From Candidatus Staskawiczbacteria bacterium (GTDB taxonomy: Bacteria > Patescibacteriota > Minisyncoccia > Minisyncoccales > Staskawiczbacteraceae): DNA of 64,000 bases. The stretch covers positions 6,354-70,353 of the forward strand of contig CAIMWV010000015.1 in assembly GCA_903845295.1 (NCBI GenBank), in the 5' to 3' direction. The translations under genes and the position numbers were made by a program. The notes under the pieces were generated by a model. That model made no database searches. It saw only the letters and a program-made list of their open reading frames with translations, and had not been told where the DNA came from. Shown here piece by piece: positions 3,623 through 63,225 of the stretch (position 1 is the stretch's first letter; each line of letters opens with the position of its first letter).

Positions 3623-3696
3623 GGGCCTGTAGCTCAGCTGGTTAGAGCACGGCTCTTATAAAGCCGGGGTCGATGGTTCGAGTCCATCCAGGCCCA
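3623..3696 (+). tRNA. tRNA-Ile (anticodon TAT)
   Basis: Manual cloverleaf: gggcctg/caggccc acceptor, anticodon arm cggct-cttataa-agccg, T arm gatgg-ttcgagt-ccatc. 74 nt, no encoded CCA. Confidence 0.85.
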
Positions 3697-3723
3697 CAAA
3701 ATTGAAAAAATTAGTAAAAATAA

Positions 3724-3892: not shown

Positions 3893-4603
3893 ATGAATAT
3901 AAAAATAATTTACGAAGATGATGATGTTCTGGTTGTTGATAAGCCGGCAGGAATTGTAGTTTTCCCGGAGGGTCAAACCAAAGAAAATACCCTGATTGAC
4001 GCTTTAATTGAAAAATATCCCGAGTTAAAAAACACTGGAGAACAGCCAAGATACGGAATTGTGCACAGATTAGATAAAGAGACTTCCGGGGTTTTACTGG
4101 TGGCAAAGAACAATGAAAGCTTGATTTTTCTGCAAAAACAGTTTAAAAATAGAGAGGTAGGAAAGAAATATGTTTGCTTGGTTGAAGGAACGATAAAAGA
4201 GGACAAAGGAGAGATCAAAACTTTAATTGCCAGATCTCCTAAAGACGGGAGGAAACAAAAAGCTTACTCAGAAAATGGACCTCACCCAAAATCAGCCAGG
4301 GAGGCTATAACAGAATATGAGGTTTTAGAAAGATTTAAAGATTATACACTATTAGAAGTTGAGATTAAAACAGGCAGACGCCACCAAATACGGTGTCATT
4401 TTTCTTATTTACATCATCCGATTGCAGGAGATAAATTATACAGTTTCAAAAATTCAAAGATTCCAAAAGGCCTGATGAGGCAATTCCTGCACTCGGCATA
4501 TTTAAAAATCCAATTGCCAAGTGGAGAAATTAAAGAATTTAAATCAGAGCTGCCGGAAGAATTAAACAACGTATTAAAAAATTTACAGCCGGGCGAACAA
4601 TAA
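3893..4603 (+). CDS. RluA-family 23S rRNA/tRNA pseudouridine synthase (RluD-like)
   Basis: Track ORF 3824..4603 trimmed to MNIKIIYEDDDVLVVDKPAG. Catalytic motif HRLDKETSGVLLVAK. Confidence 0.85.
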   Translation: MNIKIIYEDDDVLVVDKPAGIVVFPEGQTKENTLIDALIEKYPELKNTGEQPRYGIVHRLDKETSGVLLVAKNNESLIFLQKQFKNREVGKKYVCLVEGTIKEDKGEIKTLIARSPKDGRKQKAYSENGPHPKSAREAITEYEVLERFKDYTLLEVEIKTGRRHQIRCHFSYLHHPIAGDKLYSFKNSKIPKGLMRQFLHSAYLKIQLPSGEIKEFKSELPEELNNVLKNLQPGEQ

Positions 4604-4692
4604 TGAATTCGGCGTAAATGAGGCATTAATGTATTCGATATATCAGATGGCCTCATTTCCGAAGTAGTCTTATTCGCTTCGCTCACAAGACC
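4592..4692 (+). promoter_or_regulatory. Two-hairpin leader RNA motif, copy A (abuts rplS ATG)
   Basis: Stem cgtaaatgaggc/gcctcatttccg around a conserved loop aatgtattcgatatatca, then hairpin gtcttat..acaagac, then c-ATG. Homologous to copies at 17996-18096, 28149-28251 and 55112-55201. Confidence 0.6.
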
Positions 4693-11388: not shown

Positions 11389-11808
11389 TTATTCCTCGTT
11401 CTTCACTAAAATTTTATGCCAATCATTGAAGTCATAAATATCATGGGCAATAATGCCGGACACCACTCCCACAAAAAATCTTGGAAGGTAAAAATAATCA
11501 ATAAACCAAACTATCAGCAATAACAAAGCTCCTAAAATCCAGTGGTGCAGATGAATTTTCCATTTTTTCCCGCAATCTATATAAACACAATCAACCTTGC
11601 CGTTTTCAAGCAGATATTTTGAAAAAATCTTAGAGCCGATATACCCTAGGGCTAACCCCAAAGCCAAAAGAAAGGAATAATAAAATGAAGCTACTAATAC
11701 GACTGTTGGCAGATATTTCCTGACTTTTGAGTTATTATTGTCTTTTTTTGCTAATTCTAGGTCTATTAATTTACCGTTTATATCGTTTAATTTATCGTTA
11801 TTTTCCAT
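11389..11808 (-). CDS. Hypothetical integral membrane protein, 139 aa
   Basis: ATG ORF with about 3 hydrophobic helices. No family recognised. Confidence 0.55.
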   Translation of the reverse strand: MENNDKLNDINGKLIDLELAKKDNNNSKVRKYLPTVVLVASFYYSFLLALGLALGYIGSKIFSKYLLENGKVDCVYIDCGKKWKIHLHHWILGALLLLIVWFIDYFYLPRFFVGVVSGIIAHDIYDFNDWHKILVKNEE

Positions 11809-17995: not shown

Positions 17996-18096
17996 GGTCT
18001 TGTGAGCGAGGCGAACAAGATTGCTTCGGAAATTAGACCCTGATATATCTTATACATTGTGGGTCTAATTTACGCTGAACACCTTACGCTTCGCTG
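17996..18096 (-). promoter_or_regulatory. Two-hairpin leader RNA motif, copy C (abuts rny GTG)
   Basis: Sense strand: cgtaaattagaccc-acaatgtataagatatatca-gggtctaatttccg, then gtcttgt-tcgcctcgctc-acaagac, then c-GTG. Confidence 0.6.
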
Positions 18097-26738: not shown

Positions 26739-28148
26739 TTATTTAGCTTCAGTTGGATTTTCCGCGGGCTTTTCTTCAACAGCCGCATCCACTTCGCTTG
26801 GTTCTGCCGGTATTGCCTCTCCGTCTGTCCCAACTTTTTCTCCTTCGGCTTCGCTCGGGGCGGGTTCTTCCTTAGTTTTTTTAGCCTTGCCCCGCGTAGC
26901 CTTGGCGGAGTGGGGTTTCTTTTCCTTTTTTGGTTTTTCCTCTTTTTTATCTTCCTTTTTTTCTTCTTCCTTGGCAACTTCTTCCGCTTCAGCGCCCTCG
27001 GCGATTTCCTCTGCTGTCTTTTCTGCTGTTTTAATATCTATTTTCCAGCCGGTTAAATTGGCGGCCAGACGGACATTCCTGCCGTCTTTGCCGATGGCCA
27101 ATGAAAGCTGGTCTTCTGGCACAAAAACCGTGGCTGTATTTTTATCTTCAACTTTTACCCCGACGATTTTTGCCGGAGATAACGCATTAGCAATAAATTT
27201 TTCCGGCTTTTCTTCCCAAGAAATAACATCAATTTTTTCTCCGCCTAATTCATTTATAACTGCCATGATTCTTGTTCCTCTCTGACCAACACAAGCTCCA
27301 ATTGGATCAACTCCTTCTTCATTTGAAACAACTGCAATTTTTGTACGAAATCCCGGCTCTCTGGCAATTGACTTTATCACAACAACTCCGGAAGCGACTT
27401 CCGGCACTTCCAGCTCGAATAATTTTGAAATTAATTTTGGATAAGCCCTTGAAAGCATTACAACCGAACCTTTCGGAGTATCCTCCACTTTCATTATATA
27501 AAGTTTCAGGCGCTGGCTTGGCCTGTAAAATTCTCCGGGAATCTGTTCATCCCTGTTTAAAATTCCCAATGTTTTCCCGATGTCCACAAAAACCGTATGG
27601 CCCTCGACTCTCTGCACAATTCCTGAAATAATTTCCCCTTCTTTTGACCTGTATTCTGAAGAAATTGTTTCTTTTTCCGCTTCCCTTATTTTTTGCAATA
27701 TGACCTGCTTTGCAGTCTGGGCCGCAATCCTGCCATAATCCTGCTTTGAAACCAAAGGAATTTCAATCTCTTCCCCAGCCTTGATTTTCGGATAATCTTT
27801 TTTGGCATCAGCCAGCATTATATGTTTTTCGGGATTAAAAACATATTTTTTAGGCGGCTCTTCGCCTGCTCTCGCCTCATCCTGCGGAATCATTTTATTT
27901 TCTTTCATTTCTTCAATTTCCTCGTCTGTATAAAGCATTGAGTTATCCACAACTAATTTTATCTGCCAAAACTTAACATCGCCCGACACCGGGTTGAATT
28001 TGGCCTTAATTTTCTGTCCCTTTTCGCCGTAGTCTTTTTTATAGGCAGTGGCGATTGCCGCCTCAATTGTTTCTATCACCTTTTCCGGTGAAATTCCTCT
28101 TTCCTCTGCTATTTGAGCCAATGCTCCCTTAAAACCTTTTATGTCCAT
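26739..28148 (-). CDS. nusA: Transcription termination/antitermination factor NusA with Lys/Glu-rich C-terminal tail
   Basis: 469 aa. NusA N-domain, S1 domain, two KH domains (GACVGQRGTRI, AIGKDGRNVRLA). Confidence 0.95.
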   Translation of the reverse strand: MDIKGFKGALAQIAEERGISPEKVIETIEAAIATAYKKDYGEKGQKIKAKFNPVSGDVKFWQIKLVVDNSMLYTDEEIEEMKENKMIPQDEARAGEEPPKKYVFNPEKHIMLADAKKDYPKIKAGEEIEIPLVSKQDYGRIAAQTAKQVILQKIREAEKETISSEYRSKEGEIISGIVQRVEGHTVFVDIGKTLGILNRDEQIPGEFYRPSQRLKLYIMKVEDTPKGSVVMLSRAYPKLISKLFELEVPEVASGVVVIKSIAREPGFRTKIAVVSNEEGVDPIGACVGQRGTRIMAVINELGGEKIDVISWEEKPEKFIANALSPAKIVGVKVEDKNTATVFVPEDQLSLAIGKDGRNVRLAANLTGWKIDIKTAEKTAEEIAEGAEAEEVAKEEEKKEDKKEEKPKKEKKPHSAKATRGKAKKTKEEPAPSEAEGEKVGTDGEAIPAEPSEVDAAVEEKPAENPTEAK

Positions 28149-28251
28149 GGTCTTGTGAGCGAGGCGAACAAGACTACTTCGGAAATGAGGCCATCTGATA
28201 TATCGAATACATTAGTGCCTCATTTACGCTGAACTCATTATTCGCTCACCG
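28149..28251 (-). promoter_or_regulatory. Two-hairpin leader RNA motif, copy B (abuts nusA ATG)
   Basis: Sense strand: cgtaaatgaggc-actaatgtattcgatatatcagatg-gcctcatttccg, then gtcttgt-tcgcctcgctc-acaagac, then c-ATG. Confidence 0.6.
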
Positions 28252-28318
28252 TTTTTTTTAAAAAAATATGCCCGTGGTCAGACGGACAAGTTAACTCATT
28301 AATTCCAATTCTTATATC

Positions 28319-28347
28319 AATATAGCAAAAGCCAACATATGTGTCAA
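28319..28347 (-). promoter_or_regulatory. Promoter of the nusA leader
   Basis: Minus strand TTGACA (28347-28342), 17 nt, TATATT (28324-28319). Confidence 0.5.
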
Positions 28348-28415
28348 GAAACAAAAAAGAGCCCGACAGATATCGAGCCCCTGCTAAAACGTGCAATGAG
28401 CAAATGGTGCAACTT

Positions 28416-28571
28416 TCAGTGGTCGTGAACGTCGACGCAATCGTTCTTGCAGGCGCGATAGATCAGCCAAAGAAAGGAAGCTATCATGACTGCTACAAAT
28501 ATCCATATTGCCAAGTCCTTGTTAGGATCTTCGTTTCGCCCGATTGCTTCAATTACTTTCATGACACACAT
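28416..28571 (-). CDS. Small membrane protein, 51 aa (cassette 2, gene 4)
   Basis: Not in the ORF track (<60 aa). AGGAGG 8 nt before the ATG. MCVMKVIEAIGRNEDPNKDLAIWIFVAVMIASFLWLIYRACKNDCVDVHDH has one TM helix. Confidence 0.5.
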   Translation of the reverse strand: MCVMKVIEAIGRNEDPNKDLAIWIFVAVMIASFLWLIYRACKNDCVDVHDH

Positions 28572-28604
28572 GGCCTCCGCCTCCTTTCCGGCTCTTTAGA
28601 AGCC

Positions 28605-28757
28605 TCAGTAGTCGCCATAGTAATCTTCTTCACGGGTAACGTACCAAATCCCGACGAGAAAAGCGAGCAGAAACAAACCGCACAACACTAATTCCGCCCT
28701 AGCCTTGCCGGGATCCATTTCTTGCAGCGTTTCCGCAATTACCGGCAGGATGTTCAT
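28605..28757 (-). CDS. Small membrane protein, 50 aa (cassette 2, gene 3)
   Basis: Not in the ORF track. AAGGAGG 4 nt before the ATG. MNILPVIAETLQEMDPGKARAELVLCGLFLLAFLVGIWYVTREEDYYGDY has one TM helix. Confidence 0.55.
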   Translation of the reverse strand: MNILPVIAETLQEMDPGKARAELVLCGLFLLAFLVGIWYVTREEDYYGDY

Positions 28758-28786
28758 GTTGCCTCCTTTCCCAAGCTCCCGAGGAG

Positions 28787-29191
28787 CTAAGCGTTAAACC
28801 GCGTGCGCCAGATGCTCTCCACCCGGCTAGGCTGGCTTGCTTCCTTCCGTTCCGGCCGGTCTTTCTTTTTCCTTTTCGGTTCGCAGGGTTTCACTATCCC
28901 ATGGAACACGCCCCGCCCGTGAAGAACTCGCAAAACCTTCAGCGCCCTTTCCACGTGTTTGATGGCGTGCCCGTTGGCTCGGAAAAACTTTTGCAGAGCC
29001 GCCCTGGCTTCTTCTTGCTTTTGATTGTTTCCCTGGTCAGCTTCCAAGGCCCCGCGGGCTTCGGTAAAGTCGCTGAAGAAAACAAACATGTCATCGCAGG
29101 CGTCTTGGGCGTCGGCCAGCGCTTCGTTATTCACGAGCGTCACGTAATCGTCGAAGCTTTCGCACCTCTTACCGTTCCGCATCTTAAACAT
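28787..29191 (-). CDS. Hypothetical protein, 134 aa, acidic N-half and basic C-tail (cassette 2, gene 2)
   Basis: Track ORF 28787..29260 trimmed to ATG 29191, with GGAGG 5 nt upstream. Its start overlaps the upstream stop by 8 nt (ATGTTTAA). Confidence 0.65.
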   Translation of the reverse strand: MFKMRNGKRCESFDDYVTLVNNEALADAQDACDDMFVFFSDFTEARGALEADQGNNQKQEEARAALQKFFRANGHAIKHVERALKVLRVLHGRGVFHGIVKPCEPKRKKKDRPERKEASQPSRVESIWRTRFNA

Positions 29192-29522
29192 TAAGCCCTC
29201 CTCCCTTTTCCTGCCTGCGGCTGTGTGCCCAGCAATTGCGGCACATGCCGCTGCCGCCATCGGGGTTTGTCTCCGTAAAATCGTTTTTGCACTTCCCGCA
29301 CTTGCCCTCCCTGTTCAATTCCTTCCATTTCATATCTATCACGATGTATTTCTTCTCTTCCCCTCCGCCGTAATATTTCATCACAACGAAGGATATGAAA
29401 AACATCGTCAGCGCGCCTTCAATCAACTGGTCTCTGACAGGCAACCCTCGCGTGAGAGTTAACAATCCCACAGAAACCGCAGTGATTGAAAGGGCGTAAA
29501 GAATCGCTTTCCACGTCTTCAA
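29184..29522 (-). CDS. Membrane protein with C-terminal CxxC...CxxC zinc-ribbon, 112 aa (cassette 2, gene 1)
   Basis: TTG start with AGGAGG 6 nt upstream. Two TM helices, then KCGKCKNDFTETNPDGGSGMCRNCW. Confidence 0.65.
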   Translation of the reverse strand: MKTWKAILYALSITAVSVGLLTLTRGLPVRDQLIEGALTMFFISFVVMKYYGGGEEKKYIVIDMKWKELNREGKCGKCKNDFTETNPDGGSGMCRNCWAHSRRQEKGGGLNV

Positions 29523-29572
29523 GTCGCGCCTCCTTTCAAAGAGCTGTTTAAGTTTGAACCTTAACCAGTTTC

Positions 29573-29601
29573 AGATTAAGGCAGTTTATGGTATGTGTCA
29601 A
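29573..29601 (-). promoter_or_regulatory. Candidate promoter of cassette 2
   Basis: Minus strand TTGACA (29601-29596), 17 nt, TAATCT (weak -10). Confidence 0.4.
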
Positions 29602-29906
29602 CCTTCTGAAATCGTAATCCCAAAATAACGGATTTCTCCTAACTGCGCAGGCAGGGATTTTTTTACAAAAGAAAAAGCACTCAAAGAGTGCCTGGGGAAG
29701 GGAATGAGGTTGCGGGGGATTAGATTTATGGTTTAGCATGAAAGGATGGTGAGTGAGGAAGGTGGCAGCAGAACTGCCGAGGTGTTACTGAAGATTAAGT
29801 TGTAAAATAGCTTGGTTGAAGAGCTCCTGGTTCGATGTTGGAACCTTGTAGACGATTTTGCTTGCGGCTACGGTTCTCTCTTCTTCCAACTTAATTATCA
29901 CATAAG

Positions 29907-29941
29907 CAAAAACCCGCGTCAATAGCGCGGGCACTTTTTTT
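29907..29941 (-). terminator. Terminator downstream of yraN (bidirectional form)
   Basis: cccgcg-tcaatag-cgcggg with an A run on one side and a T run on the other. Confidence 0.55.
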
Positions 29942-29949
29942 GTTCAAAA

Positions 29950-30363
29950 TTATTTATCCTTTACAATATTCTCAAAAAAATCAACTTTTGGAATTTCATT
30001 ATTTATGGAAATTGCTATTATATCTATCTGGCAAGGATAATTTTGCGGAAACTTATTTTTTGAAAGCCAGATTTCAGCTAAGCTTATATATTTATTCTGC
30101 TTTTTATAGTCAACCCTCTGCTCAGGAAAAAAATCTTTGCCTTGTTTAGACAAAGATTTTACTTCAATGAAATGAATTGCCCGCCCTGAGGACGCCGAAG
30201 GGTTTTTCCTAAATAGATCCCCAAATTTCCATCTTTTTTGGGCAATAATATCGATTTCTCCAAAGTTTATCCTATAGTTTCTCCCTATGATTTTATACCC
30301 GTTCTTAACAAGATATTCACAAGCCAAATCCTCTCCAAATTTTCCTAAATCCCTTGTATCCAT
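29950..30363 (-). CDS. yraN: YraN-family (UPF0102) endonuclease-like protein with an in-frame G+C-rich insert
   Basis: 137 aa. GEDLACEYLVKNGYKIIGRNYR..GEIDIIA...HFIEVKS. Insert NPSASSGRA is encoded by 30179-30203. Confidence 0.8.
   Translation of the reverse strand: MDTRDLGKFGEDLACEYLVKNGYKIIGRNYRINFGEIDIIAQKRWKFGDLFRKNPSASSGRAIHFIEVKSLSKQGKDFFPEQRVDYKKQNKYISLAEIWLSKNKFPQNYPCQIDIIAISINNEIPKVDFFENIVKDK
30179..30203. repeat. G+C-rich mini-element copy (inside yraN)
   Basis: gcccgccctgaggacgccgaaggg is the reverse complement of the CCCTTCGRC..CTCAGGGC consensus. Confidence 0.6.
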
Positions 30364-48617: not shown

Positions 48618-49226
48618 ATGTTAAATATCAGTTTCTATTTATATATATTTGTTCTGATTATATGGCTTATCTATATATTTAATTCTTTCTATCAAAATTA
48701 CCGGATGAAAAAATTTATACCCAGCAAAACCATAGAAGTTTTAACTATTCCTTTTTACATTTTTTCTACATTATCTTTTTATCTCTTAACCAGAAACATT
48801 ATAATTATTATTTCAACTGGCAATAGAGAAAAATTTATAAATTTAAATTCGTTATGGCCGATAATTTTAGTTATCACAGGAATAGTATTTTGCTCCTGTT
48901 CTGCAATTCTTTATATCTATGCCAATTTTTTCGAAAAATCTTTTCCAAGCTGCATAACCGCGGAAAATAACAAGCCGCTTGAAGGATTATATAAATATAT
49001 CCGCCATCCTTCATATTACATATTCTTTTTTATAACTTTCGGGAATGCTCTCTGCTTATTAAGTCTGCCACTTTTCATATTGGCATGCATAAATCATATT
49101 TGTCTTTATTTTTATTATATGATTGAAGAAAATCAAATCAGGAAAACAAATGCTGATTATGATAAATATTTGAAGATAAGCAACAGGTTCTTGCCGAATT
49201 TTTTTAAAATGCCGGCTATCAACTGA
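48618..49226 (+). CDS. Membrane methyltransferase-like protein (ICMT/PEMT-type fold)
   Basis: 202 aa with 4-5 TM helices. GLYKYIRHPSYY motif as in isoprenylcysteine carboxyl / phospholipid methyltransferases. Confidence 0.5.
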   Translation: MLNISFYLYIFVLIIWLIYIFNSFYQNYRMKKFIPSKTIEVLTIPFYIFSTLSFYLLTRNIIIIISTGNREKFINLNSLWPIILVITGIVFCSCSAILYIYANFFEKSFPSCITAENNKPLEGLYKYIRHPSYYIFFFITFGNALCLLSLPLFILACINHICLYFYYMIEENQIRKTNADYDKYLKISNRFLPNFFKMPAIN

Positions 49227-49278
49227 TAAAGATTAATGCTTTATCTATTATTTGTGATATAATTATTATAATTAAAAC

Positions 49279-50025
49279 ATGATTAAAAAGACTGAGGCAA
49301 TGTTCTTTCGGGTTTCAGAAAATATATTCATAAAATATTATAAGGCCGGTGAAAAATTAAAAGATTTTTTATCGCCAATTTTTAATCCGGAAAATAAGGA
49401 AAGAGGCCTTGTAATTTCGGGTACCACACTGCTTATTGTTGGAATAGCAGCAGCAGTATTAGCCGGAGTAGGGTATGTATCCGTAAAAAATACCGTAGCA
49501 GGAGCGGAAGCAGATTTTTTTACCGCTTTAGTTTTAGGAATAGGTTTAGTGTTTGTGATGCTTGGCCAAGCAGTTTTTGGTTTTGCCGCCGGTTTTTTAA
49601 CAAGAGTTTTAGACCCACAGTTCATAAATGGAGCCATTACTAGCAATCAGGTATTCTCAACTGTATGGGGAAACGTCAGGGATTTAGCTAATATGATTAT
49701 TGTTATGGGATTTGTTGTTGTGGGAATAGCCACCGCATTAAGAATCCAGGAATATGCGGCAAAGAAAATTTTATGGCGGTTAATATTAATTGCTCTTGTA
49801 ATTAATTTTTCCGGCCTGTTTTGCGGGCTGATAATTGATTTATCAAATATAACAATGAACGGACTGCTTGGCGGCAGCAGTGCCCAAACAAACATTGAGT
49901 CGATATCTCTTGCTATTACAAATTATGTAAATAATGCGCTTGGAGAAACCGCAAAATTAATGCCCGGTGGCGGCATAATCTCAACTCCCCCAGCTCCTGC
50001 AGCTCCTGCAGCTGTTGGCAGATAA
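49279..50025 (+). CDS. Polytopic membrane protein, possible N-terminal part of a VirB6/TrbL-like channel component
   Basis: 248 aa with 5-6 TM helices. The Pro/Ala tail STPPAPAAPAAV resembles the N-terminal linker of 51397..52911. Confidence 0.5.
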   Translation: MIKKTEAMFFRVSENIFIKYYKAGEKLKDFLSPIFNPENKERGLVISGTTLLIVGIAAAVLAGVGYVSVKNTVAGAEADFFTALVLGIGLVFVMLGQAVFGFAAGFLTRVLDPQFINGAITSNQVFSTVWGNVRDLANMIIVMGFVVVGIATALRIQEYAAKKILWRLILIALVINFSGLFCGLIIDLSNITMNGLLGGSSAQTNIESISLAITNYVNNALGETAKLMPGGGIISTPPAPAAPAAVGR

Positions 50026-50146
50026 ACTCCTGCCTCGCCGCCCCAATAACGCTAAAGCAGAAGCTCTTAATATTTCTGACTAGATAAATTTATTAAAGAG
50101 TTTAGAAAAAGAATAAAAATATTTTTATCAATAATTTTAAACCATT

Positions 50147-51244
50147 ATGACAGTAAAAAATAATTTAATTTGGGTAGGGGCGTCTCTTGCGGTGTTTTTG
50201 TTTTTAATTAGTTTCGGAAATAAAACTTTACTTTATATGAATACGGCGGATTTAATTGGCAGCCTTGGCAGCCAATGCGCTCCTAATTGGCAGTGTAACT
50301 CTTGGACTGAATGCAACTCTCGGGGCGAGGCATACAGGCAGTGTGCAGATATAAATAATTGTATGAGGGCTGTTTCTCCCGATACCAGTCGTGATTGTGT
50401 GCTGACGCCGGAAATGCTGACTTCTTATCAGAATGATTACGAAAATAAACTTTTAAATATCGGAGGCGATACCTCTAAAATAAAAGTTGATTTTACCGGG
50501 GGAATAGGGGAACAAAATAGCGGGGACTGCCAGTATATTAACGACACAAGCCCAATTTGCTATTATTTCAATCTTCCCGGCAATATGTCTATCAAATTTT
50601 CGAACAGCCAGGCATCAGGAGATTCGTCCCAGGGGGAAATGACCTTTATAAACGGAGATACAAATAAAAAACTGATGACAGGGATAGGATCTTTAAAAGA
50701 CCCTCTTAATAAAATTTCGGCGGGATTTTATGTTTATCCGACTAATTCCGAAAATATTTTTTATATTGTCGGCGATAAAACAATAGAAAATAATATTATG
50801 TCCTGGAAAGAAATTTATTTTGATGTGTCAAAACAGGATATCGTTTTTTATGCAGATGCCGGCGTGAATTTAGGAGGGACAAACGTAAGTTTCGTTAATA
50901 TTAAAAAAGGCGCCCAGAAAGAATATGATATTAATGTAAATCTGCCCAGTTCTTGCACTTTTCCTGAAAAATATGGATTAAACGGCATTTTTGTGAACAA
51001 CGTAAATAATAGCGTATTTCCCAATTCCCTGTCATTTGATTGCAATCAAGACGGACAAAGCTATTCAGACTCAATTGAGGTCGAACCGCTTGCGCTAAGC
51101 AGCGATTTTAAAACGCTCCATTTATTTGTGCATAAATTTAAAAACGACGGCCTTAAAAATAATGGCCCTGAAAAAGATGGCACAGATTGGCATTACTTAT
51201 TTGGTTTAACTGGCGGCACAATAACATTTGCGCCAAATAATTAA
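50147..51244 (+). CDS. Secreted hypothetical protein with N-terminal Cys-rich motif
   Basis: 365 aa with a signal/TM anchor, then CAPNWQCNSWTECNSRGEAYRQCADINNC. Confidence 0.55.
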   Translation: MTVKNNLIWVGASLAVFLFLISFGNKTLLYMNTADLIGSLGSQCAPNWQCNSWTECNSRGEAYRQCADINNCMRAVSPDTSRDCVLTPEMLTSYQNDYENKLLNIGGDTSKIKVDFTGGIGEQNSGDCQYINDTSPICYYFNLPGNMSIKFSNSQASGDSSQGEMTFINGDTNKKLMTGIGSLKDPLNKISAGFYVYPTNSENIFYIVGDKTIENNIMSWKEIYFDVSKQDIVFYADAGVNLGGTNVSFVNIKKGAQKEYDINVNLPSSCTFPEKYGLNGIFVNNVNNSVFPNSLSFDCNQDGQSYSDSIEVEPLALSSDFKTLHLFVHKFKNDGLKNNGPEKDGTDWHYLFGLTGGTITFAPNN

Positions 51245-51396
51245 ATAAAAAAACCTTTAAGTTTTTGGGCAAGTGACGATTAACGATAGCCGCCGGAATA
51301 TGACCTGCGAAAAATTTTATAGAAAAAAAGATAAAATATTCTTAATAATGCGATCAATAAAAAAATCAAAAAAGATTTAAACAATAATCTTAACTT

Positions 51397-52911
51397 ATGC
51401 CAAAATTTTTTTCAATTTTAAAAAACAAAAAACTAATATTTTTTGTTTTTCTAATTTTTACATTTTTAGCACTAACTTTTCCTGAAATAACTATCGCTGT
51501 TAACGGTGGACCCGTAATGAATGGTTTGTTACCATCGACCCCAATATCAGCACCAACTCCCGCACCGGTTACAGCCGCCGTTAAAGAGCCTGGGAAATTT
51601 TTGTTAAATTGCATCTTATTTTTTTGCATGTTGGTATTTGCGGCATACACGTTTGCGATTATGGCTGTTTTGATTGCTGCAAGATATGCCGTACTTGCCG
51701 CGCTTTATATACTTTCGCCATTGGCTTTTGCTTTTTGGATTTTTCCTGCGTCCAGATTAAAGAAATACCACTCACAATGGTGGGACGAATTTTTAAAATG
51801 GTGCTTTGTGGGAGTTTTTGCCTCATTTTTTATTTATTTGGCAACAAAAGTAATAGATGCCTCAACCAAAAGCGGGAAGTTAGACACTTTCCCTCTTTTC
51901 GTTGCTTTTATCTTTATTATAGTCGGTTACAAGATGATCCGCAAAACTGGTGGAATAGCAGATATAGCAGCTGGCGCAATTAAAGGAGTTGCAACCGGAG
52001 GAGCTGGGCTTGCTATGGGAGCAGTGGTAGGGGCGGGAGGGATAGCAATGAATAGATTAGGTAGGACAGCAACCGGACAAAGAGTAAAAGAGGCAGTTAG
52101 CGACAGAGTGGCCAGAATTCAAGAAACTCTTGGCGCGCCAGAGGGCCATGCAGCCCAGCAAAGAACGGCCAGGGAGCGTGCTGCAGCAACACAAGTAAAT
52201 GCTCTGCGAACATCTTCAGCCCAAGGAGACAGAAATAGATACGAACAACTTGTCAGAACCGGCCAAGGAGCAATGGGAGCAGCAGCTGTTACTACAGCCA
52301 ATGAGCACGGCGACCTTGGCAGATTATATGATCTGAATACCGATAATGGACTTAACCAAGCTAATAATCGCGTGGCCCATGCTCAAGCATTCGGACATGA
52401 AAGAGGTGAATTTGAAAGAAGAAATTATCAATTAAGAGGTGTTAACGAAGGAGCAATAGGCGCTTACGCAACTGCTCATCCCAATGTTGACCCAGCCAAT
52501 ATTCCAGCTACATTAAGGAGAGAACAGCTCGCAGAAAACCTCCCAACAATGACTGCTCCCGAATTTGGAAGAATTAATCATGAGGATCTTGGCGGTCCTG
52601 GCGGCTATCAATTTGTAAGAGATAACTTTACTCCCCGCATGATAGATCGAATAGGAGTTACAGGAAACGCTGATTTGATAGGTGCTGTAAATGCCCATGC
52701 GCCACAAATGATAACCGAAGCTGCTGCTGCAGGTGCTAATGGCAACCAAGGAGAATTTAACAGATTAAATGAAAGAATAATTGCGATTGCAAGATTGCCC
52801 GGAGCTCATCTGCCAAATAATCCTCCTCCGCAAACAAATGCATATCCGCCAAACAATGTTAATATACCTCCTCCAGGTCCAGGTCCAAACCCATATATTC
52901 CTCTGCCATAA
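51397..52911 (+). CDS. TrbL/VirB6-like polytopic membrane protein with Gly-rich loop and long soluble Pro-rich tail
   Basis: 504 aa with a signal segment and about 5 TM helices (LAALYILSPLAFAFWIFP..., WCFVGVFASFFIYL...). GGIADIAAGAIKGVATGGAGLAMGAVVGAGG. Confidence 0.55.
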   Translation: MPKFFSILKNKKLIFFVFLIFTFLALTFPEITIAVNGGPVMNGLLPSTPISAPTPAPVTAAVKEPGKFLLNCILFFCMLVFAAYTFAIMAVLIAARYAVLAALYILSPLAFAFWIFPASRLKKYHSQWWDEFLKWCFVGVFASFFIYLATKVIDASTKSGKLDTFPLFVAFIFIIVGYKMIRKTGGIADIAAGAIKGVATGGAGLAMGAVVGAGGIAMNRLGRTATGQRVKEAVSDRVARIQETLGAPEGHAAQQRTARERAAATQVNALRTSSAQGDRNRYEQLVRTGQGAMGAAAVTTANEHGDLGRLYDLNTDNGLNQANNRVAHAQAFGHERGEFERRNYQLRGVNEGAIGAYATAHPNVDPANIPATLRREQLAENLPTMTAPEFGRINHEDLGGPGGYQFVRDNFTPRMIDRIGVTGNADLIGAVNAHAPQMITEAAAAGANGNQGEFNRLNERIIAIARLPGAHLPNNPPPQTNAYPPNNVNIPPPGPGPNPYIPLP

Positions 52912-52932
52912 TTATAAAAAATTTATAAAAAA

Positions 52933-53577
52933 ATGAATGAACAAAAAAATAATGTACGCGTGTTATTTACGGTCAAAGCAAATTCTGGTCTTAATGACAT
53001 AATAAAAAAATTTGGCTTGGAAGAAACCATGGAAGAGTCTGTGAAAAGAATGCAAAAAGGAAAACTTGCAAAAATGGTTGTTATTGACCATTTATCCAAA
53101 GATTTTGCATTAGGGACTATATCAGAAAAAGATTTGGTCAGCTCTTTAAAAGATGATTTAGAAATTTCTCAACAAACAGCAGGGCAAATTTCAAAAGATA
53201 TTTTGACTAATATTATTCCTTTTTTGGAAAAGGTTCCCGAAGAAAAATTGAAGGACCCTGCTTTTGTGGAAGAACTTGTTAAAAAAGTTTTGGGAGAAAC
53301 AATGAAAGAAAAACCTTTGATTTCTAAAATAGAAACTCCCGGGCAAGAACCCTTCGGCACGGCTCAGGGCAAGAAAGATATAGATCTTTTTCCTAAAATT
53401 AAACCCGATGAAAATATTACCAAACCAACAGAAAAAAATACTTCAGTGCCAGAGAAAGAGCTGGGTGGAGGAACCGCACTTCAATCAAAAAAAATTAAAA
53501 AACCGCTTCCAAAAGAATCTGCGCCCCAAATAAAACAAACAAGGGGACCAGACAATTATCGCGAACCGATTGGGTAA
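52933..53577 (+). CDS. Hypothetical protein, 214 aa (contains an in-frame G+C-rich mini-element)
   Basis: ATG ORF. The segment EPFGTAQGK is encoded by 53350-53370. Confidence 0.55.
   Translation: MNEQKNNVRVLFTVKANSGLNDIIKKFGLEETMEESVKRMQKGKLAKMVVIDHLSKDFALGTISEKDLVSSLKDDLEISQQTAGQISKDILTNIIPFLEKVPEEKLKDPAFVEELVKKVLGETMKEKPLISKIETPGQEPFGTAQGKKDIDLFPKIKPDENITKPTEKNTSVPEKELGGGTALQSKKIKKPLPKESAPQIKQTRGPDNYREPIG
53350..53370. repeat. G+C-rich mini-element copy (inside 52933..53577, third reading frame)
   Basis: cccttcggcacggctcagggc. Confidence 0.6.
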
Positions 53578-53590
53578 AAAATTGCAATAG

Positions 53591-53624
53591 AAAATGGCAA
53601 ACACAATCGTGTTTGCCATTTTTG
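53591..53624. terminator. Bidirectional terminator shared by 52933..53577 and the SPFH gene
   Basis: aaa-atggcaaacac-aatc-gtgtttgccat-tttt, a perfect 11-bp stem. Confidence 0.7.
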
Positions 53625-53653
53625 ATTCCATTTGCTGGAACCCTTTCGCTCCC

Positions 53654-54808
53654 TTAGTTGGGCGTCCTCTTCAAGGGATCCCATTTAGGATATTTGCCAT
53701 TTCTGGCAAAGTGGTCCGCAGCAGCTTGCTCATACGGCGCTGGATCCACCGGCATATTGGATCTTCCTCGCTGACGAGGTCCTTGGCCGCCTTGCTGTCC
53801 GTCGCGATTTCCACCGCCGCGCTTGCCTTGACCGCCGACTAAGATGCCTGCGCCTCCGCCACCGCCGCCGACGACCGCAGTGGTTGCATTTTCGAGGCCG
53901 TGAACCTCTAGATTTTGACCTCCGGCCTTCAAATAAGCCCTCTTGGCCAATTCGTCCTGCTTCTTGGTAATTTGTTCCGGAGAAGCGCCAGGATGGGCCT
54001 TTTTCCAGGCTTCTAATGCCTGGTTTGTATCATCAAGCCGAGTGGCGCTTGCCGCTGCCTCATGTACGGCGGCCTCTTTTTCCTTCTGGGCCTTGTATGG
54101 TGCCAGTGTGGTGTCCCGCCATCCTGGCGGGGGATCAATGCTGGCCAGTTCCACTGACTCAACCTCAATCCCGTACGTATCCCTCAGCTCAACAATCACC
54201 GAGGGCTTTCCACTTTCGCGGGGGGCATTCATTGCCTCCCACAAACGCTGCCCGAACACTTTCACGGCGCTTCCCGCTGGCACATTCTGGCCAGTAATTT
54301 GCTCCCAAGAAACCTCCGTGAAAACTTGACGCAAAGCTGAGATGACTAGGGTGATCGTCGTGACGTACCAATCGCTGGCCACAAAGAAGGCCTTGGATGG
54401 ATCCGCCATCCGTGCATGCGTCGCGATCACCCCCGTCAAGGGCAACCCATGAGAATCCTCTTCATCCTTGAAGGGGATAGCATATGGGTATCTGGTGCTC
54501 TTAAAGCTGGTGATGTTGGAATCGTCATGATCCTCAACGGTGACGTCGCCGTCATCTTTCACCACACATTTTTTGAACACCATCTTCCTGGAGTAAAGAG
54601 TGTACACTCCTGGCCACCCCAGCCAGTGAAGACCGGGTCCGAGTGTTATGTGGTAGCAGCCCAGCCGCATTACCACCTTGTACCAACCCTGCTCCACCTT
54701 GGTCCAAAGGAAATTGCGCTTGGCAAGCCCGAGGACGGCATAGAAGCCAAGCAAAGCCACCAGCACGATTGCGGCCAGCGACACCAGAAACTCCTCAAAA
54801 AAGTCCAT
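53654..54808 (-). CDS. SPFH/band-7 (flotillin/prohibitin-like) membrane protein with Gly/Arg/Gln-rich tail; G+C-rich cassette 3
   Basis: 384 aa. ATG with GGAGG 6 nt upstream. N-terminal TM helix, a central region with an SPFH-like pattern, coiled coil KAQKEKEAAVHEAAA, tail GGGGGGAG...GKRGGGNRDGQQGGQGPRQRGR. Family call is from pattern memory only. Confidence 0.65.
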   Translation of the reverse strand: MDFFEEFLVSLAAIVLVALLGFYAVLGLAKRNFLWTKVEQGWYKVVMRLGCYHITLGPGLHWLGWPGVYTLYSRKMVFKKCVVKDDGDVTVEDHDDSNITSFKSTRYPYAIPFKDEEDSHGLPLTGVIATHARMADPSKAFFVASDWYVTTITLVISALRQVFTEVSWEQITGQNVPAGSAVKVFGQRLWEAMNAPRESGKPSVIVELRDTYGIEVESVELASIDPPPGWRDTTLAPYKAQKEKEAAVHEAAASATRLDDTNQALEAWKKAHPGASPEQITKKQDELAKRAYLKAGGQNLEVHGLENATTAVVGGGGGGAGILVGGQGKRGGGNRDGQQGGQGPRQRGRSNMPVDPAPYEQAAADHFARNGKYPKWDPLKRTPN

Positions 54809-54971
54809 GTTCCACCTCCAAAAAAAGAGTTAAGCTTCGAATCGTTGATGGTCTGCGCAGGACAATCCCGCGCTAAACCCGTCGCGTAGTAATTTCTGCT
54901 GAAAAAAATCTAGGCAAATCACTACGTGACAGGTTTAAAAGACCATTTTTCTCAATGTTCTTGTTATATAA

Positions 54972-55000
54972 AGCATAGCATATTATTTTAATCTTGTCAA
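54972..55000 (-). promoter_or_regulatory. Candidate promoter of cassette 3
   Basis: Minus strand TTGACA (55000-54995), 17 nt, TATGCT (54977-54972), with a roughly 160-nt structured leader. Confidence 0.45.
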
Positions 55001-55048
55001 GATTTAAGCTCTTAAATTACGGCTTCCAATTCTGTGCAATAACCCCTA

Positions 55049-55078
55049 TTGCCTATGCTTTTTTATACGTGATATAAT
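55049..55078 (+). promoter_or_regulatory. Candidate promoter of the PrgI/VirB4 operon
   Basis: TTGCCT, 18 nt, TGaTATAAT (extended -10). Confidence 0.4.
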
Positions 55079-55111
55079 AACAAAATAAGTATAATAAAAA
55101 ATTAACAGAAA

Positions 55112-55201
55112 AAGGTGTTCAGCGGAAATTAGACCAGCAATGTATAAGATATATCAAGGTCTAATTTCCGAAGCAAATCTGCTCGCCTCGCTCGCAGACC
55201 C
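55112..55201 (+). promoter_or_regulatory. Two-hairpin leader RNA motif, copy D (abuts GTG of the PrgI-like gene)
   Basis: cggaaattagacc-agcaatgtataagatatatcaa-ggtctaatttccg, then tctgc-tcgcctcgctc-gcaga, then ccc-GTG. Confidence 0.6.
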
Positions 55202-55609
55202 GTGGAACAATATCCTATACCACAATTTATTGAATCAGAGAGCAAAATTATTTCGTTCATGTCATTTAAACAATTTTTTTACCTTGTGGGAGCCGGGCTC
55301 ATCTGTTTTTTCCTGTATTTTATTTTGCCCCGCGTTCTTTTTTTTATAGTTAGCGCTATAATTTTTCTTGCTGCAATAGTACTCGCCTTCGGAACAATGG
55401 GCGGCACTCCCATACTAAATATAATTTTAGGATCGATTGGTTTTTCAATGGGCGGCAAAGATTATACATGGAAAAAGAAGGAATCCCCCTACCCTTTCAA
55501 ACCGATAAAAAGGACTCAGATTAAAAAAATAGAACAAGGCCCTGTTTTACAGGCCCAAACAAGCCAATTAAAAAGAACGCGCACTGCGATAGAAATGCGC
55601 ACTAAGTAA
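55202..55609 (+). CDS. PrgI/VirB3-like small membrane protein of a type IV secretion system
   Basis: 135 aa. MEQYPIPQFIESESKIISFMSFKQFFYLVGAGLI followed by two TM helices. Located two genes upstream of VirB4. Confidence 0.6.
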   Translation: MEQYPIPQFIESESKIISFMSFKQFFYLVGAGLICFFLYFILPRVLFFIVSAIIFLAAIVLAFGTMGGTPILNIILGSIGFSMGGKDYTWKKKESPYPFKPIKRTQIKKIEQGPVLQAQTSQLKRTRTAIEMRTK

Positions 55610-55627
55610 TTAAAAATTCATAACTAT

Positions 55628-56290
55628 ATGCCAGAATCAGCTACACAAGCATTTTTAGAAGTACAAGACATAAGAGAGGGAATTTTAATTTTAAAAAACA
55701 ACTCTATAAGAGGGATTTTAATGGTCTCTTCTATAAATTTTGCATTGAAATCGGAGGAAGAACAAACAGCCATAATTTTCGCTTTTCAAACTTTTTTAAA
55801 CTCTTTGGATTTTTTCTGCCAGATTGTAATTCAATCGAGAAACATAAACATTACTCCGTATTTAGACGGTTTGAAAGATTTAGAGGAAAAGCAAACTAAC
55901 GAATTATTAAGGAAACAAACATCATCATATAGAGAATTTATAAAAAATATGGTTGTGGGAGACACGGTCATGACAAAAAACTTTTATATTGTCATTCCTT
56001 ATAACCTTATGGAAATTTTCGGAATGAAAGGAGCGGCAAAACAGTTTGGCATTTTTAAAAAAGAATCCGGAGGGCAGCAGGGACAAGCTATGAAAGACGA
56101 TGAATTTCAAAGGGCCAAAACGCAGCTCTGGCAAAGGATGGAATATGCATCAATGGGTTTAAGAAGGTGCGGGTTGGAGGCCGTGCCTTTAACAACGCCG
56201 GAGCTTATCGAACTTTTCTGGTCCATACACCATCCGGATCAGGCAGAAGTTGGATACTATCCGGAGATATTGCCGGAATTGCTCAAATAA
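55628..56290 (+). CDS. Hypothetical T4SS-associated protein, 220 aa
   Basis: ATG ORF between the PrgI-like and VirB4 genes. No family recognised. Confidence 0.55.
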   Translation: MPESATQAFLEVQDIREGILILKNNSIRGILMVSSINFALKSEEEQTAIIFAFQTFLNSLDFFCQIVIQSRNINITPYLDGLKDLEEKQTNELLRKQTSSYREFIKNMVVGDTVMTKNFYIVIPYNLMEIFGMKGAAKQFGIFKKESGGQQGQAMKDDEFQRAKTQLWQRMEYASMGLRRCGLEAVPLTTPELIELFWSIHHPDQAEVGYYPEILPELLK

Positions 56291-56306
56291 TAATGAACTC
56301 CGTATC

Positions 56307-56406
56307 GTGAAGTTAGAATACAGAATAGAATACAGAATAAAGAACTCTGAATCCAATATTTAAAATTCTATTCAAAATACTATATACTAAATTCAAAATT
56401 ATATTT
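56307..56406 (+). repeat. AT-rich AGAAT-repeat upstream module, copy 2 (abuts virB4 ATG)
   Basis: gtgaagttagaatacagaatagaatacagaataaagaactctgaatccaatatttaaaattctattcaaaatactatatactaaattcaaaattatattt-ATG. Confidence 0.6.
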
Positions 56407-58209
56407 ATGCCATCATTTTTAAATAATCTTTTAGGCAAAAAACAAGAAGATCTGACAGAACAAATTTTTCAGGAAGAGGCTTTTGATGTAAGAGATATTA
56501 TAGCTCCGCCATATATCGGAGTAATGCAAGACCATATAAAATTGGGCGAAAGGTTTGCCAAGTCTTTTTTTGTTTTTTCTTATCCCCGATATTTAAATAC
56601 CGGCTGGTTCACGCCTGTCATTGATTTAAATACCCCCATGGATGTTTCATTCTTCATACACCCCGTCAGCAGCGAATTGATTTTAAAAAAATTAAGAAAA
56701 AAAGTTACGGAGGTTTCGTCAGAAATATTAGAAAGAGAAGAAAAGGGATTGATCAGAGATCCCGCCCTGGAAACTGCATATAAAGATATTGAAACCCTTA
56801 GGGACAACTTGATGACGGCCCAAGAAAAGATGTTCAGGCTGGGTATTTATATCACAGTCTATGAAACTTCTGAAAAAGAACTGCGCGATACAGAACTTAC
56901 TTTAAGGTCAATTTTTGAATCCAGGTTAATTTATATAAAACCTGCTCTATTTAAACAAAAAGAGGGATTTATTTCCTGCAATCCTTACGGTATGGACTTG
57001 CTAGAAGTCCATACTCCTATGGATACAGAACCCCTGTCAACTTGTTTCCCTTTCATCTGTTTTGATTTAAGCTCTAATGAAGGAATTTTATATGGCATAA
57101 ACAGGCACAATAATTCTTTGGTTTTATTTGACAGATTCAGCTTGGAAAATGCGAATATGGTGGTTTTTGCAAAATCCGGCGCAGGAAAATCCTTTGCTAT
57201 AAAATTAGAAATTTTAAGATATCTGATGCAGGGAGTCGATTGCATAATTATCGACCCGGAAAACGAATATGAATTTTTAGCGGATGCGGTGGGCGGTTCA
57301 TTTTTAAAAATTTCCTTGACTTCTCCAAACCATTTAAACCCTTTTGATTTACCCCTCCCCGGCCCCGATGATAATCCGGAAGATATTTTACGGTCTAATG
57401 TCATAAACCTGGTCGGGCTTTTAAGAATCATGCTGGGAGGATTAACGCCGGAAGAAGACAGTATTTTAGACGAAGCCCTTACGGAAACTTATGCCGTAAG
57501 GGATATCACCCCGCAATCAGACCCAAAAACCTGGGCAAACAGCACGCCTTTAATGTCTGACTTCCAGGAAATTTTAGAGAGCATGACCGGAACAGAATCT
57601 TTGGTTAATCGCATTAAAAAATTTACCAAAGGGACTTTTTCTGACTTCTTCAACCAGCAGTCAAATATTTCTATGGACAAAAGTTTTGTTGTTTTTGGGA
57701 TAAGAGACATGGAAGAATCTTTAAGGCCTATCGCACTGTACATTGTTATGAGATATATCTGGAATATGGTCAGGTCAAAATTAAAAAAAAGAATTCTGGT
57801 TATTGATGAGGCGTGGTGGCTGATGCAATCAGATGACGGAGCTTCATTCCTTTTTGGCTTGGTAAAAAGAGGCAGAAAATATTGGCTGGGGGTTACAACT
57901 ATTACTCAAGATGTGGGTGATTTTATGAAATCTGATTACGGCAAAGCAATTGTCACAAACTCATCCCTGCAGTTTTTAATGAAACAATCAACTGCTGATA
58001 TTGATTCCGTACAAAAAACTTTTACCTTGACGGAACAAGAAAAAAATCTATTGATTGAAGCGGCGGTCGGAGAAGGGTTATTTTTCGCCGGCAGAAAACA
58101 TGTATATCTGCAGGTGGTTGCCAGTCAGACAGAGAACCAAATAGTTACAACTAATCCTCAAGAAGTTGAACAAAATAGAGAGGAAAAAAGAAACTTAGGG
58201 TCTGTTTAA
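56407..58209 (+). CDS. virB4: VirB4/TraC/TrsE-family type IV secretion ATPase
   Basis: 600 aa. Walker A AKSGAGKSF, Walker B RILVIDEAWWLM. Size and motif order fit VirB4-type ATPases. Confidence 0.9.
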   Translation: MPSFLNNLLGKKQEDLTEQIFQEEAFDVRDIIAPPYIGVMQDHIKLGERFAKSFFVFSYPRYLNTGWFTPVIDLNTPMDVSFFIHPVSSELILKKLRKKVTEVSSEILEREEKGLIRDPALETAYKDIETLRDNLMTAQEKMFRLGIYITVYETSEKELRDTELTLRSIFESRLIYIKPALFKQKEGFISCNPYGMDLLEVHTPMDTEPLSTCFPFICFDLSSNEGILYGINRHNNSLVLFDRFSLENANMVVFAKSGAGKSFAIKLEILRYLMQGVDCIIIDPENEYEFLADAVGGSFLKISLTSPNHLNPFDLPLPGPDDNPEDILRSNVINLVGLLRIMLGGLTPEEDSILDEALTETYAVRDITPQSDPKTWANSTPLMSDFQEILESMTGTESLVNRIKKFTKGTFSDFFNQQSNISMDKSFVVFGIRDMEESLRPIALYIVMRYIWNMVRSKLKKRILVIDEAWWLMQSDDGASFLFGLVKRGRKYWLGVTTITQDVGDFMKSDYGKAIVTNSSLQFLMKQSTADIDSVQKTFTLTEQEKNLLIEAAVGEGLFFAGRKHVYLQVVASQTENQIVTTNPQEVEQNREEKRNLGSV

Positions 58210-58324
58210 GTTTAAATTTTTATAAAAAACGTAAATACTTGGTAAGGAGGCATCCCTGACTAAAAACCGAACTTTTGATTCTGAGGAATTAAATAAATTT
58301 TTTAATTAAGAAGGCAATAAAGCG

Positions 58325-61996: not shown

Positions 61997-62019
61997 TTTT
62001 TAAATAATAAAAAAAAGAT

Positions 62020-63207: not shown

Positions 63208-63225
63208 AATCACAATATAAATTTG

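Follow-up and report, generated by a model that had tools for sequence, protein, structure and literature searches.

Phage morons and small genomic islets have a promoter and terminator of their own, deviate in G+C content and codon usage from the unrelated resident genes between which they lie, vary in content between close relatives and carry no mobility gene. The same features are seen in a cassette of four small minus-strand genes, here called g1 to g4, which lies between yraN and nusA (within positions 28350-29905) in a 64,000-nucleotide (nt) stretch of contig CAIMWV010000015.1 (assembly GCA_903845295.1, positions 6,354 to 70,353 of the forward strand), assigned to a Candidatus Staskawiczbacteria bacterium. 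This whole stretch is called the window below. As a kind of unit, the cassette is closest to a phage moron or a small genomic islet. It differs from these in lying between chromosomal housekeeping genes of a Patescibacterium rather than in a prophage, in having four to five genes rather than one, and in the shuffling of its modules via repeated Shine-Dalgarno (SD) sequences. A literature search found nothing on this cassette.

Other described systems resemble it less. Holin and pinholin lysis cassettes likewise encode very small membrane proteins of one or two transmembrane (TM) helices with charged tails, tightly packed, which is a non-specific likeness, but our cassette comes without an endolysin, spanin, phage context or any sequence or profile match, and the zinc ribbon on the two-TM protein g1 is no holin feature. 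A resemblance to phage lysis or holin-like modules had been proposed in the first-pass annotation of the locus; it gained no support, as there are no endolysin or phage genes nearby and no PHROG, phage-database or viral-contig match. The small-toxin and membrane-sensor comparisons made alongside it are conjectural. Type I toxin-antitoxin (TA) systems (Hok, TisB, Fst) share single-pass peptides of ~50 amino acids (aa; g3 has 50 and g4 51) and a mobile, patchy locus. Here, however, the SD sites are strong and exposed, several proteins are co-transcribed, and there is no family match; a consensus scan, which is weak evidence, showed no antisense RNA signal. Integron gene cassettes are also short, SD-led open reading frames (ORFs) of deviant composition that come and go as modules, but this cassette has its own promoter, no attC-like imperfect inverted repeat (the spacers being 29-33 nt) and no intI or attI, and its neighbours are yraN, DUF5671, NUDIX, nusA and H+-PPase genes. 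The SLATT two-TM effector of the RTasSLATT type gives a weak PADLOC match to g1 (E=0.007-0.0095), yet 1/30 members of the hairpin family to which part of g1 belongs match it, which is chance level, and no reverse transcriptase or nucleotide-sensor gene lies nearby. Membrane-tethered zinc-ribbon proteins (zinc_ribbon/DZR-type and zinc-binding anti-sigma factors, ZAS) combine a TM anchor with a four-cysteine zinc ribbon, presumably cytoplasmic, as g1 does, but no Pfam zinc-ribbon model reaches its cut-off for g1. In contrast to ZAS proteins, the g1 ribbon is C-terminal and of the CxxC...CxxC form, with no HxxxCxxC, and the locus lacks a sigma factor gene. The defining features of lysis and integron cassettes, SLATT effectors and ZAS proteins are lacking here, and those of a type I TA system are present in part.

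The cassette is very probably a genuine, self-contained accessory operon of four SD-led small genes with its own sigma-70-type promoter and intrinsic terminator, set between the yraN terminator and the nusA promoter, and related lineages have traded its modules laterally, the repeated SD sequences acting as points of deletion or recombination; this high probability covers these statements together with the foreign codon usage and translation signals, the fusion in g1 and the paralogy of g3 and g4 described below. The modularity and lateral exchange at a fixed slot, the fusion of two families in g1 and the paralogy of g3 and g4 all go beyond the first-pass annotation. The homologous loci used for comparison are L004, L006 and L007 (a sister genome), L005 and L008 (distant hosts) and L009-L011 (the closest GTDB relatives).

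Layout, coding evidence and composition of the cassette

The four ORFs were found, in an ORF listing and a minus-strand reading of 28100-30000, at the coordinates first noted, and the compact operon holds a strong SD site for each gene as had been described. g1 (29184..29522, minus strand, as are the other features of the cassette; 112 aa) begins with TTG and has AGGAGG at 29534-29529, 6 nt upstream; its start is ATG at the same position in L005 and L008. The ATG of g2 (28787..29191; 134 aa) overlaps the g1 stop in ATGTTTAA. g3 (28605..28757; 50 aa) follows the SD sequence GGGAAAGGAGG, and g4 (28416..28571; 51 aa) follows GGAAAGGAGG. An 11-nt site, GAAAGGAGGC(G/A), stands ahead of g1, g3 and g4 (repeat family D1), and the full GAAAGGAGG site is found 5-9 nt before the ATG of both g3 and g4. 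Genes overlap in the g1/g2 pair alone, and spacers of 29 nt (g2-g3) and 33 nt (g3-g4) lie between the others; the term 'translationally coupled', first applied to the whole operon, therefore strictly fits g1/g2 only.

Transcription signals were predicted from sequence as consensus signals. A candidate cassette promoter, read from the sequence at 29573..29601, has a perfect -35 box (TTGACA, 29601-29596), a 17-nt spacer and a -10-like TAATCT (29578-29573) which is too weak for the consensus scan. It is near-identical in L007, and L005 and L008 have another promoter, TTGACG-17-TATAGT, in the same relative place. Directly after g4 the consensus scan predicts an intrinsic terminator (28357..28382) with an 11-pair stem followed by a T run, which is kept in L007 and L008, and then the nusA promoter (28319..28347; TTGACA-17-TATATT with a TG extension), which forms the downstream boundary. 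Since a perfect -35 box, terminators and the nusA promoter were found, the unit can be taken as an independent promoter-to-terminator cassette. The sequence TTGACACATA in the nusA promoter (28347-28338) recurs as the opening 10 nt of the cassette promoter (29601-29592; repeat family D13); its presence at both cassette ends is a lead only, because two copies of one 10-nt sequence within 1.85 kb are close to chance expectation. The consensus scan found no plus-strand promoter-like site within 28350-29600, such scans being weak evidence.

The order yraN-g1-g2-g3-g4-nusA is seen on at least 8 independently assembled ENA metagenome contigs wherever the flanks are visible, with identical g1 and g2 proteins, and gene callers had called all four genes on these contigs. 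The exact g3 sequence is present on 17 contigs and the exact g4 sequence on 16. A misassembly, which had been raised as a possible explanation of the segment, is excluded because the same locus occurs in 8 independent assemblies. In codon-aware comparisons with the homologous loci, g1-g4 show an excess of third-position substitutions and low ratios of non-synonymous to synonymous substitution rates (dN/dS): ~0.15 for g1 (six pairs), 0.22 for g2 (window against L005, whose homologue is 80-82% identical), 0.22 for g3 (window against L008, whose copy is 88% identical) and 0.18-0.42 for g4 (three pairs). For the two smallest genes, whose conservation had been put forward as a check, homologues are present at further loci, and the ratio of non-synonymous to synonymous proportions of differences (pN/pS) is low. 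When all six frames were compared, the g3 frame had the lowest pN/pS (0.26) and was the sole stop-free frame for that gene; the g4 frame is stop-free with 0.49, and one alternative frame which contains stops is slightly lower at 0.38. The other stop-free frame over g4 is antisense, and corresponds to a 116-aa plus-strand ORF that stays open in L007 and L008. Its value of 1.26 bears out the earlier view that this ORF is spurious. At the gathering threshold, Rfam matches in the window are tRNAs only; near the cassette, the E-value threshold adds a single Leu_leader match, which lies on the other strand and is at chance level (E=0.17; 21 bits where the gathering score is 50). g1-g4 are thus protein-coding and under purifying selection.

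The host is, by its nusA sequence, a Staskawiczbacteria-like Patescibacterium: the nearest GTDB genome is a Candidatus Staskawiczbacteria metagenome-assembled genome (MAG) with 81% amino-acid identity, and the next ones are other Patescibacteria. The G+C content is 0.53-0.60 over 28650-29300 compared with ~0.38 for the window, and G+C at third codon positions (GC3) is 0.54-0.68 for g1-g4 compared with 0.30-0.42 for yraN, DUF5671, nusA, H+-PPase, NUDIX, DUF2207 and ftsH. This shift in GC3 is also present in the cassette copies of L005, L007 and L008, and the SD cores are conserved across these alleles, with differing spacers. Among window ORFs of at least 150 aa, those of host composition (G+C 0.27-0.43) have A+T-rich leaders and no strong SD site, the best match being 5 bases before one ORF; strong sites in this size class occur only before genes of two other G+C-rich islands (430-1533 and 53654-54808). 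g1-g4 are all shorter than 150 aa and so stand outside that list, and each has a strong SD. The cassette is foreign in codon usage and translation signals, as had been proposed from its SD sites in a genome that otherwise has none. A published survey reports a detectable anti-SD motif in only 48% of the 16S sequences of Parcubacteria (PMC9297842). The window contains no rRNA that would show the anti-SD of the host 16S, nor an rplA cluster (uL1 as proxy). The most interesting point is the conservation of strong SD sites in a genome that otherwise does without them, and this contrast can be used to ask how translation initiates in these organisms.

The two other islands have no DNA or repeats in common with each other and the cassette. 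The first, 430-1533 on the minus strand, is a G+C-rich ORF of 367 aa (G+C 0.60, GC3 0.74) with a strong SD-like GGGAAGGAGGGGG before an internal ATG; it has no Pfam match and no DNA in common with the cassette. The second (53654-54808, minus strand; G+C 0.56) is an SD-bearing 384-aa SPFH/Band-7 protein with a Gly-rich tail, encoded inside the type IV secretion-like cluster described below.

Distribution, module shuffling and lateral exchange

Homologues of the cassette are very few, and together they define a pan-cassette of g1, g2, g2', g3 and g4. In the window all of these except g2' lie between yraN and nusA. The sister genome (L004, L006 and L007), whose flanks are mostly 90-99% identical, has g1, a 29-aa remnant of g2, and g4, with g3 lost; at the L007 junction the SD sequences of g3 and g4 are fused, which marks a deletion between these repeats. 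L008, on a 180-kb contig of a distant host, has g1, an unrelated 127-aa gene product (g2') in place of g2, then g3 and g4, and L005, from another distant host, has g1, g2 and g2' before the contig ends. Two further ENA contigs, known from their gene calls, have g1 (in one of them cut short where the contig ends), then g2' with 126 aa, and nusA downstream, and one of the two also has a 54-aa g4 and genes other than yraN upstream. Every locus contains g1, and all those with DNA on record for the 3' part of the cassette contain g4, making g1 and g4 the constant core. The closest GTDB relatives (L009-L011, nusA 73-81% identical) have unrelated genes between yraN and nusA and no cassette, so the yraN-nusA slot is a variable spot. 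The loci taken together provide a clean case of gene-module shuffling via repeated ribosome-binding sites.

Synonymous divergence of the cassette is out of step with that of the flanks in both directions. Between the window and L007, the proportion of synonymous differences (pS) is 0.05 for yraN and 0.25 for nusA compared with 0.52 for g1. Host genes are saturated (0.70-0.78) when the window or L007 is compared with L008, whereas g3 is at 0.27 and g4 at 0.33, and at 0.10 for g4 between L007 and L008. Between the window and L005, yraN is at 0.75, and g1 and g2 are at 0.40 and 0.39. The modules therefore differ in history and moved between lineages after these had split. They always lie just upstream of the nusA promoter. 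As for the route, homologous recombination after DNA uptake would be the simplest.

Further insertions and deletions relative to L007 are found in the window at 37400-36270, 34466-34167, 32366-32217 and 31616-31467, some beside tRNA genes. Short palindromic inserts with terminal inverted repeats, resembling miniature inverted-repeat transposable elements (MITEs), occur beside the cassette in L005 (745-855), L007 (9548-9590 and 10653-10805) and L008 (11790-11866). Each is flanked by TTGAC, and for several the site is a promoter -35 box or the loop of a terminator. L008 has an A+T-rich ORF (11534-11737) for a 67-aa two-TM protein inserted after the cassette terminator and ahead of the nusA promoter; this ORF has a promoter and a terminator to itself, and the repeat TTTGTTCTTGAC flanks it. 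A type IV secretion-like cluster occupies ~49000-64000 of the window (plus strand) and is a possible route for DNA exchange. It encodes a TraG/VirB4-type P-loop ATPase (56407-58209), a 504-aa polytopic protein (51397-52911), a 1223-aa Cys-rich secreted protein (58325-61996) and a protein with a weak match to type IV secretion system pilins, below the Pfam cut-off (62020-63207).

A more radical idea is that the cassette is an integrase-free mobile module which moves from one Patescibacterium to another, landing at promoter -35 boxes (TTGAC), and that its SD-dependent genes use a separate initiation route or ribosome state. Its basis is TTGACACATA at the start and end of the cassette and the TTGAC around the mini-elements of L005, L007 and L008, and we think it improbable. 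If true, SD-dependent genes in an SD-free host would be a natural probe of SD-independent versus SD-dependent initiation.

The products, their wider families and their possible role

Hydropathy predicts a pair of TM helices for g1, a single one for g3 and for g4, but none for g2, in line with the membrane character given to these proteins in the first reading. In g1 the helices span residues ~7-23 and 32-48 and are followed by a zinc ribbon, C75-x2-C78 ... C94-x2-C97 (CGKC...CRNC). A profile search of 1.84 billion representatives with g1 gave 48 matches. Among them, 28 proteins of 50-97 aa (26/28 being 50-76 aa) match residues 1-55 alone and form a two-TM hairpin family with the consensus MSTxKALLxALGVTVVSxxLLTxxxGxPTxxQL...MFxVAFxVLKF. 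About 16 small proteins match the zinc-ribbon part alone (~residues 43-102), usually after 1-4 TM helices, with the motif W-x2-RN-x2-GKCGxC-x3-FT-x2-NPD-x-GGG-x-C-x2-CW, and one protein (P0015) spans hairpin and zinc ribbon. From these sequences g1 is a fusion of two uncharacterised families, a Patescibacteria-wide two-TM hairpin and a membrane-tethered zinc ribbon (GKCGxC...NPDxGGGxCxxCW), both undescribed small-protein families. Named members of the hairpin family come from Staskawiczbacteria and Minisyncoccia MAGs. Hairpin genes fit the host composition in genomes of 45-50% G+C, and the cassette therefore plausibly originated in a higher-G+C Patescibacterium. Standalone hairpin genes in L089 and in L095/L096 adjoin a conserved two-TM protein of 83-102 aa in ordinary chromosomal contexts. 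This protein, which combines a coiled coil with its two TM helices, is encoded directly downstream of the hairpin genes in different Patescibacteria (L089 405-713; L095 4179-4430; L096 4313-4564) and has no Pfam match.

g2 has no TM helix and is dipolar, with a net charge of -7 over residues 1-60 and +13 over residues 61-134. A low-confidence AlphaFold2 model predicts long helices at 13-51 and 56-91, forming a helical hairpin, and a disordered basic tail. The gene is absent from L008 and reduced to the 29-aa remnant in L007, and g2 and g2' have no similarity, so the idea that they are distant homologues was dropped. g3, of which four variants are on record, has an acidic C-terminal tail after its TM helix, and g4, also present in L007, L008 and further contigs, has a Cys/His-rich one (CxC...H...H...C in most variants). 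The similarity between the two is weak (E=8e-4) but they have the same architecture, and in a natural variant (P0057) the N-terminus of g4 (MCVM...) is joined to a g3 body. g3 and g4 are thus paralogous single-pass peptides.

The statement that nothing in the operon belongs to a recognised family is upheld by wider searches. Pfam, PHROGs, PADLOC and NCBIfam gave nothing above noise for all products, g2' and the two wider families, and PDB sequence and profile searches gave no match. No match came from tblastn of g1, g2 and g2' against 50,697 phage records, from tblastn of g1 against plasmid records, from scans of IMG/VR with the g1 alignment and a g3 DNA pattern, or from a GTDB scan for g1. 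AlphaFold2 models made with 3-sequence alignments have pLDDT values of 61-64, and Foldseek found 0 matches at E<=0.001 against PDB and BFVD. At low confidence, the g1 model runs from two TM helices through a further helix and zinc knuckles (pLDDT ~80) to a last helix.

Together, the products may form a small complex in the cytoplasmic membrane, in which the g1 hairpin and the g3 and g4 helices would pack in the bilayer. With an N-in/C-in topology, g1 would have its zinc ribbon in the cytoplasm. g4, if oriented by the basic residues after its TM helix, would also have its Cys/His-rich tail there, and the dipolar g2, or g2' in its place, would dock on the cytoplasmic face. Such a complex would give a strain-specific accessory trait. 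A membrane-level protective or exclusion (conflict) function is placed first, tentatively and at well under even chances, because the cassette is mobile, lies at a hot spot, has a fast gene turnover and encodes no enzyme. For the statement as a whole, that an exchanged accessory operon encodes a membrane complex with a conflict or exclusion trait, we would put the chances at about even. Several points weigh against it. The complex and its topology were deduced from hydropathy and charge, and the function and expression of g1-g4 are predictions from sequence. The products have no homology to any characterised protein, their structure models are of low confidence (pLDDT 61-64), and fold searches with these gave no significant match. 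The locus has no integrase, transposase or clear target duplication that would account for mobility, and the hairpin genes beside the conserved 83-102-aa membrane protein hint at a housekeeping membrane role over conflict.

The cassette could instead be a phage-derived remnant, that is, a moron, superinfection-exclusion or holin-type lysis module left by a Patescibacteria phage. An own promoter and terminator and a composition unlike that of the neighbours are moron hallmarks, and holins and exclusion proteins, too, are typically small and membrane-bound. The hairpin gene of another locus, L092, also lies in a run of small uncharacterised genes, one with a weak ribbon-helix-helix-like match (E=0.006, below the Pfam cut-off). 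Such an origin is nevertheless unlikely: the flanks are housekeeping genes (yraN and nusA) with no phage gene, endolysin or integrase nearby, the phage searches (PHROGs, 50,697 phage records, IMG/VR) are without a match, and purifying selection acts at the same chromosomal slot in several lineages. An addiction or abortive-infection TA module, in which g3/g4 or the g1 hairpin would depolarise the membrane and another product would neutralise this, is given the same low rank. It would fit with single-pass peptides of 50-51 aa like those of type I toxins, with the mobility and presence/absence turnover of the cassette, and with the one weak PADLOC match of g1 to the SLATT model (E=0.007). However, that match is at chance level across the hairpin family (1/30), strong unsequestered SD sites on all genes are unlike type I toxins, the consensus scan showed no plus-strand promoter-like site for an antisense RNA inside the cassette, and known TA or defence models are not matched.

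Less probable still are vertically inherited housekeeping membrane subunits (of a transporter, pilus or secretion system) whose G+C content and SD sites result from selection on expression. In favour of this, the cassette lies ahead of nusA in every lineage seen, its genes are under purifying selection, and the hairpin family occurs widely in Patescibacteria beside a conserved membrane protein. Against it, synonymous divergence departs from that of the flanks in both directions, the shift in GC3 goes beyond amino-acid composition, genes are lost or replaced between sister genomes, and the closest GTDB relatives are without the cassette. We can give hardly any credence to a non-coding origin, whether as an assembly chimera, a structured RNA or the 116-aa plus-strand ORF as a real gene. 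Structured RNA can stand out by its high G+C where the genome is A+T-rich, and the plus-strand ORF is open in L007 and L008, but the 8 independent assemblies, Rfam matches that are tRNAs only at the gathering threshold (the lone sub-threshold match near the cassette being at chance level), and the codon-position bias and low dN/dS of the minus-strand frames against 1.26 in the antisense frame all speak against it. The evidence weighs most heavily against a housekeeping role and a non-coding origin, and it does not tell the conflict-type readings apart.

Patescibacteria genomes are tiny, and a maintained, traded, enzyme-free operon is for this reason likely to matter for lifestyle, be it in membrane integrity, in the exclusion of phages or competitors, or in host contact. 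At present the value of the exchanged accessory operon is that of a well-documented lead, short of a discovery.

Neighbouring and other elements in the window

Upstream of the cassette, the region 29670..29932 (minus strand) begins with the yraN terminator (29932-29912), which is overlapped by a promoter-like site (29922-29894), and ends with a terminator-like hairpin (29693-29675). In between are ~125 nt that are 100% identical to L007 and hold a 38-aa GTG ORF, and then a variable C-rich stretch. The ORF starts within the promoter-like site, and its stretch is 100% identical in the sole relative having it. The element is present in the window and L004, L006 and L007 only, and absent from L005 and L008; its RNA fold z-score is only -1.24, and Rfam offers no credible match for it. 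It may be a separate short transcription unit for a small transcript or micro-ORF. The C-rich stretch upstream of g1 was also considered as an anti-SD sponge, but this was dropped, as the stretch is not conserved in L007 and the fold z-score (-1.24) gives it no support.

A conserved leader of ~95 nt is found at 28149-28242 (minus strand), 4599-4692 (plus strand), 17996-18095 (minus strand) and 55108-55200 (plus strand), with two more copies in L009. It ends exactly at the start codon of nusA, rplS (bL19), rny (RNase Y) and a 135-aa membrane ORF. Its hairpin changes from AAATGAGGC...GCCTCATTT to AAATTAGAC...GTCTAATTT in two copies, which are compensatory changes. It has no Rfam match, and may serve cis-regulation or translation initiation in an SD-less Parcubacterium.

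The window also encodes a tRNA-Ile with the anticodon TAT (3623-3697, plus strand; ARAGORN), an uncommon way for bacteria to read AUA.

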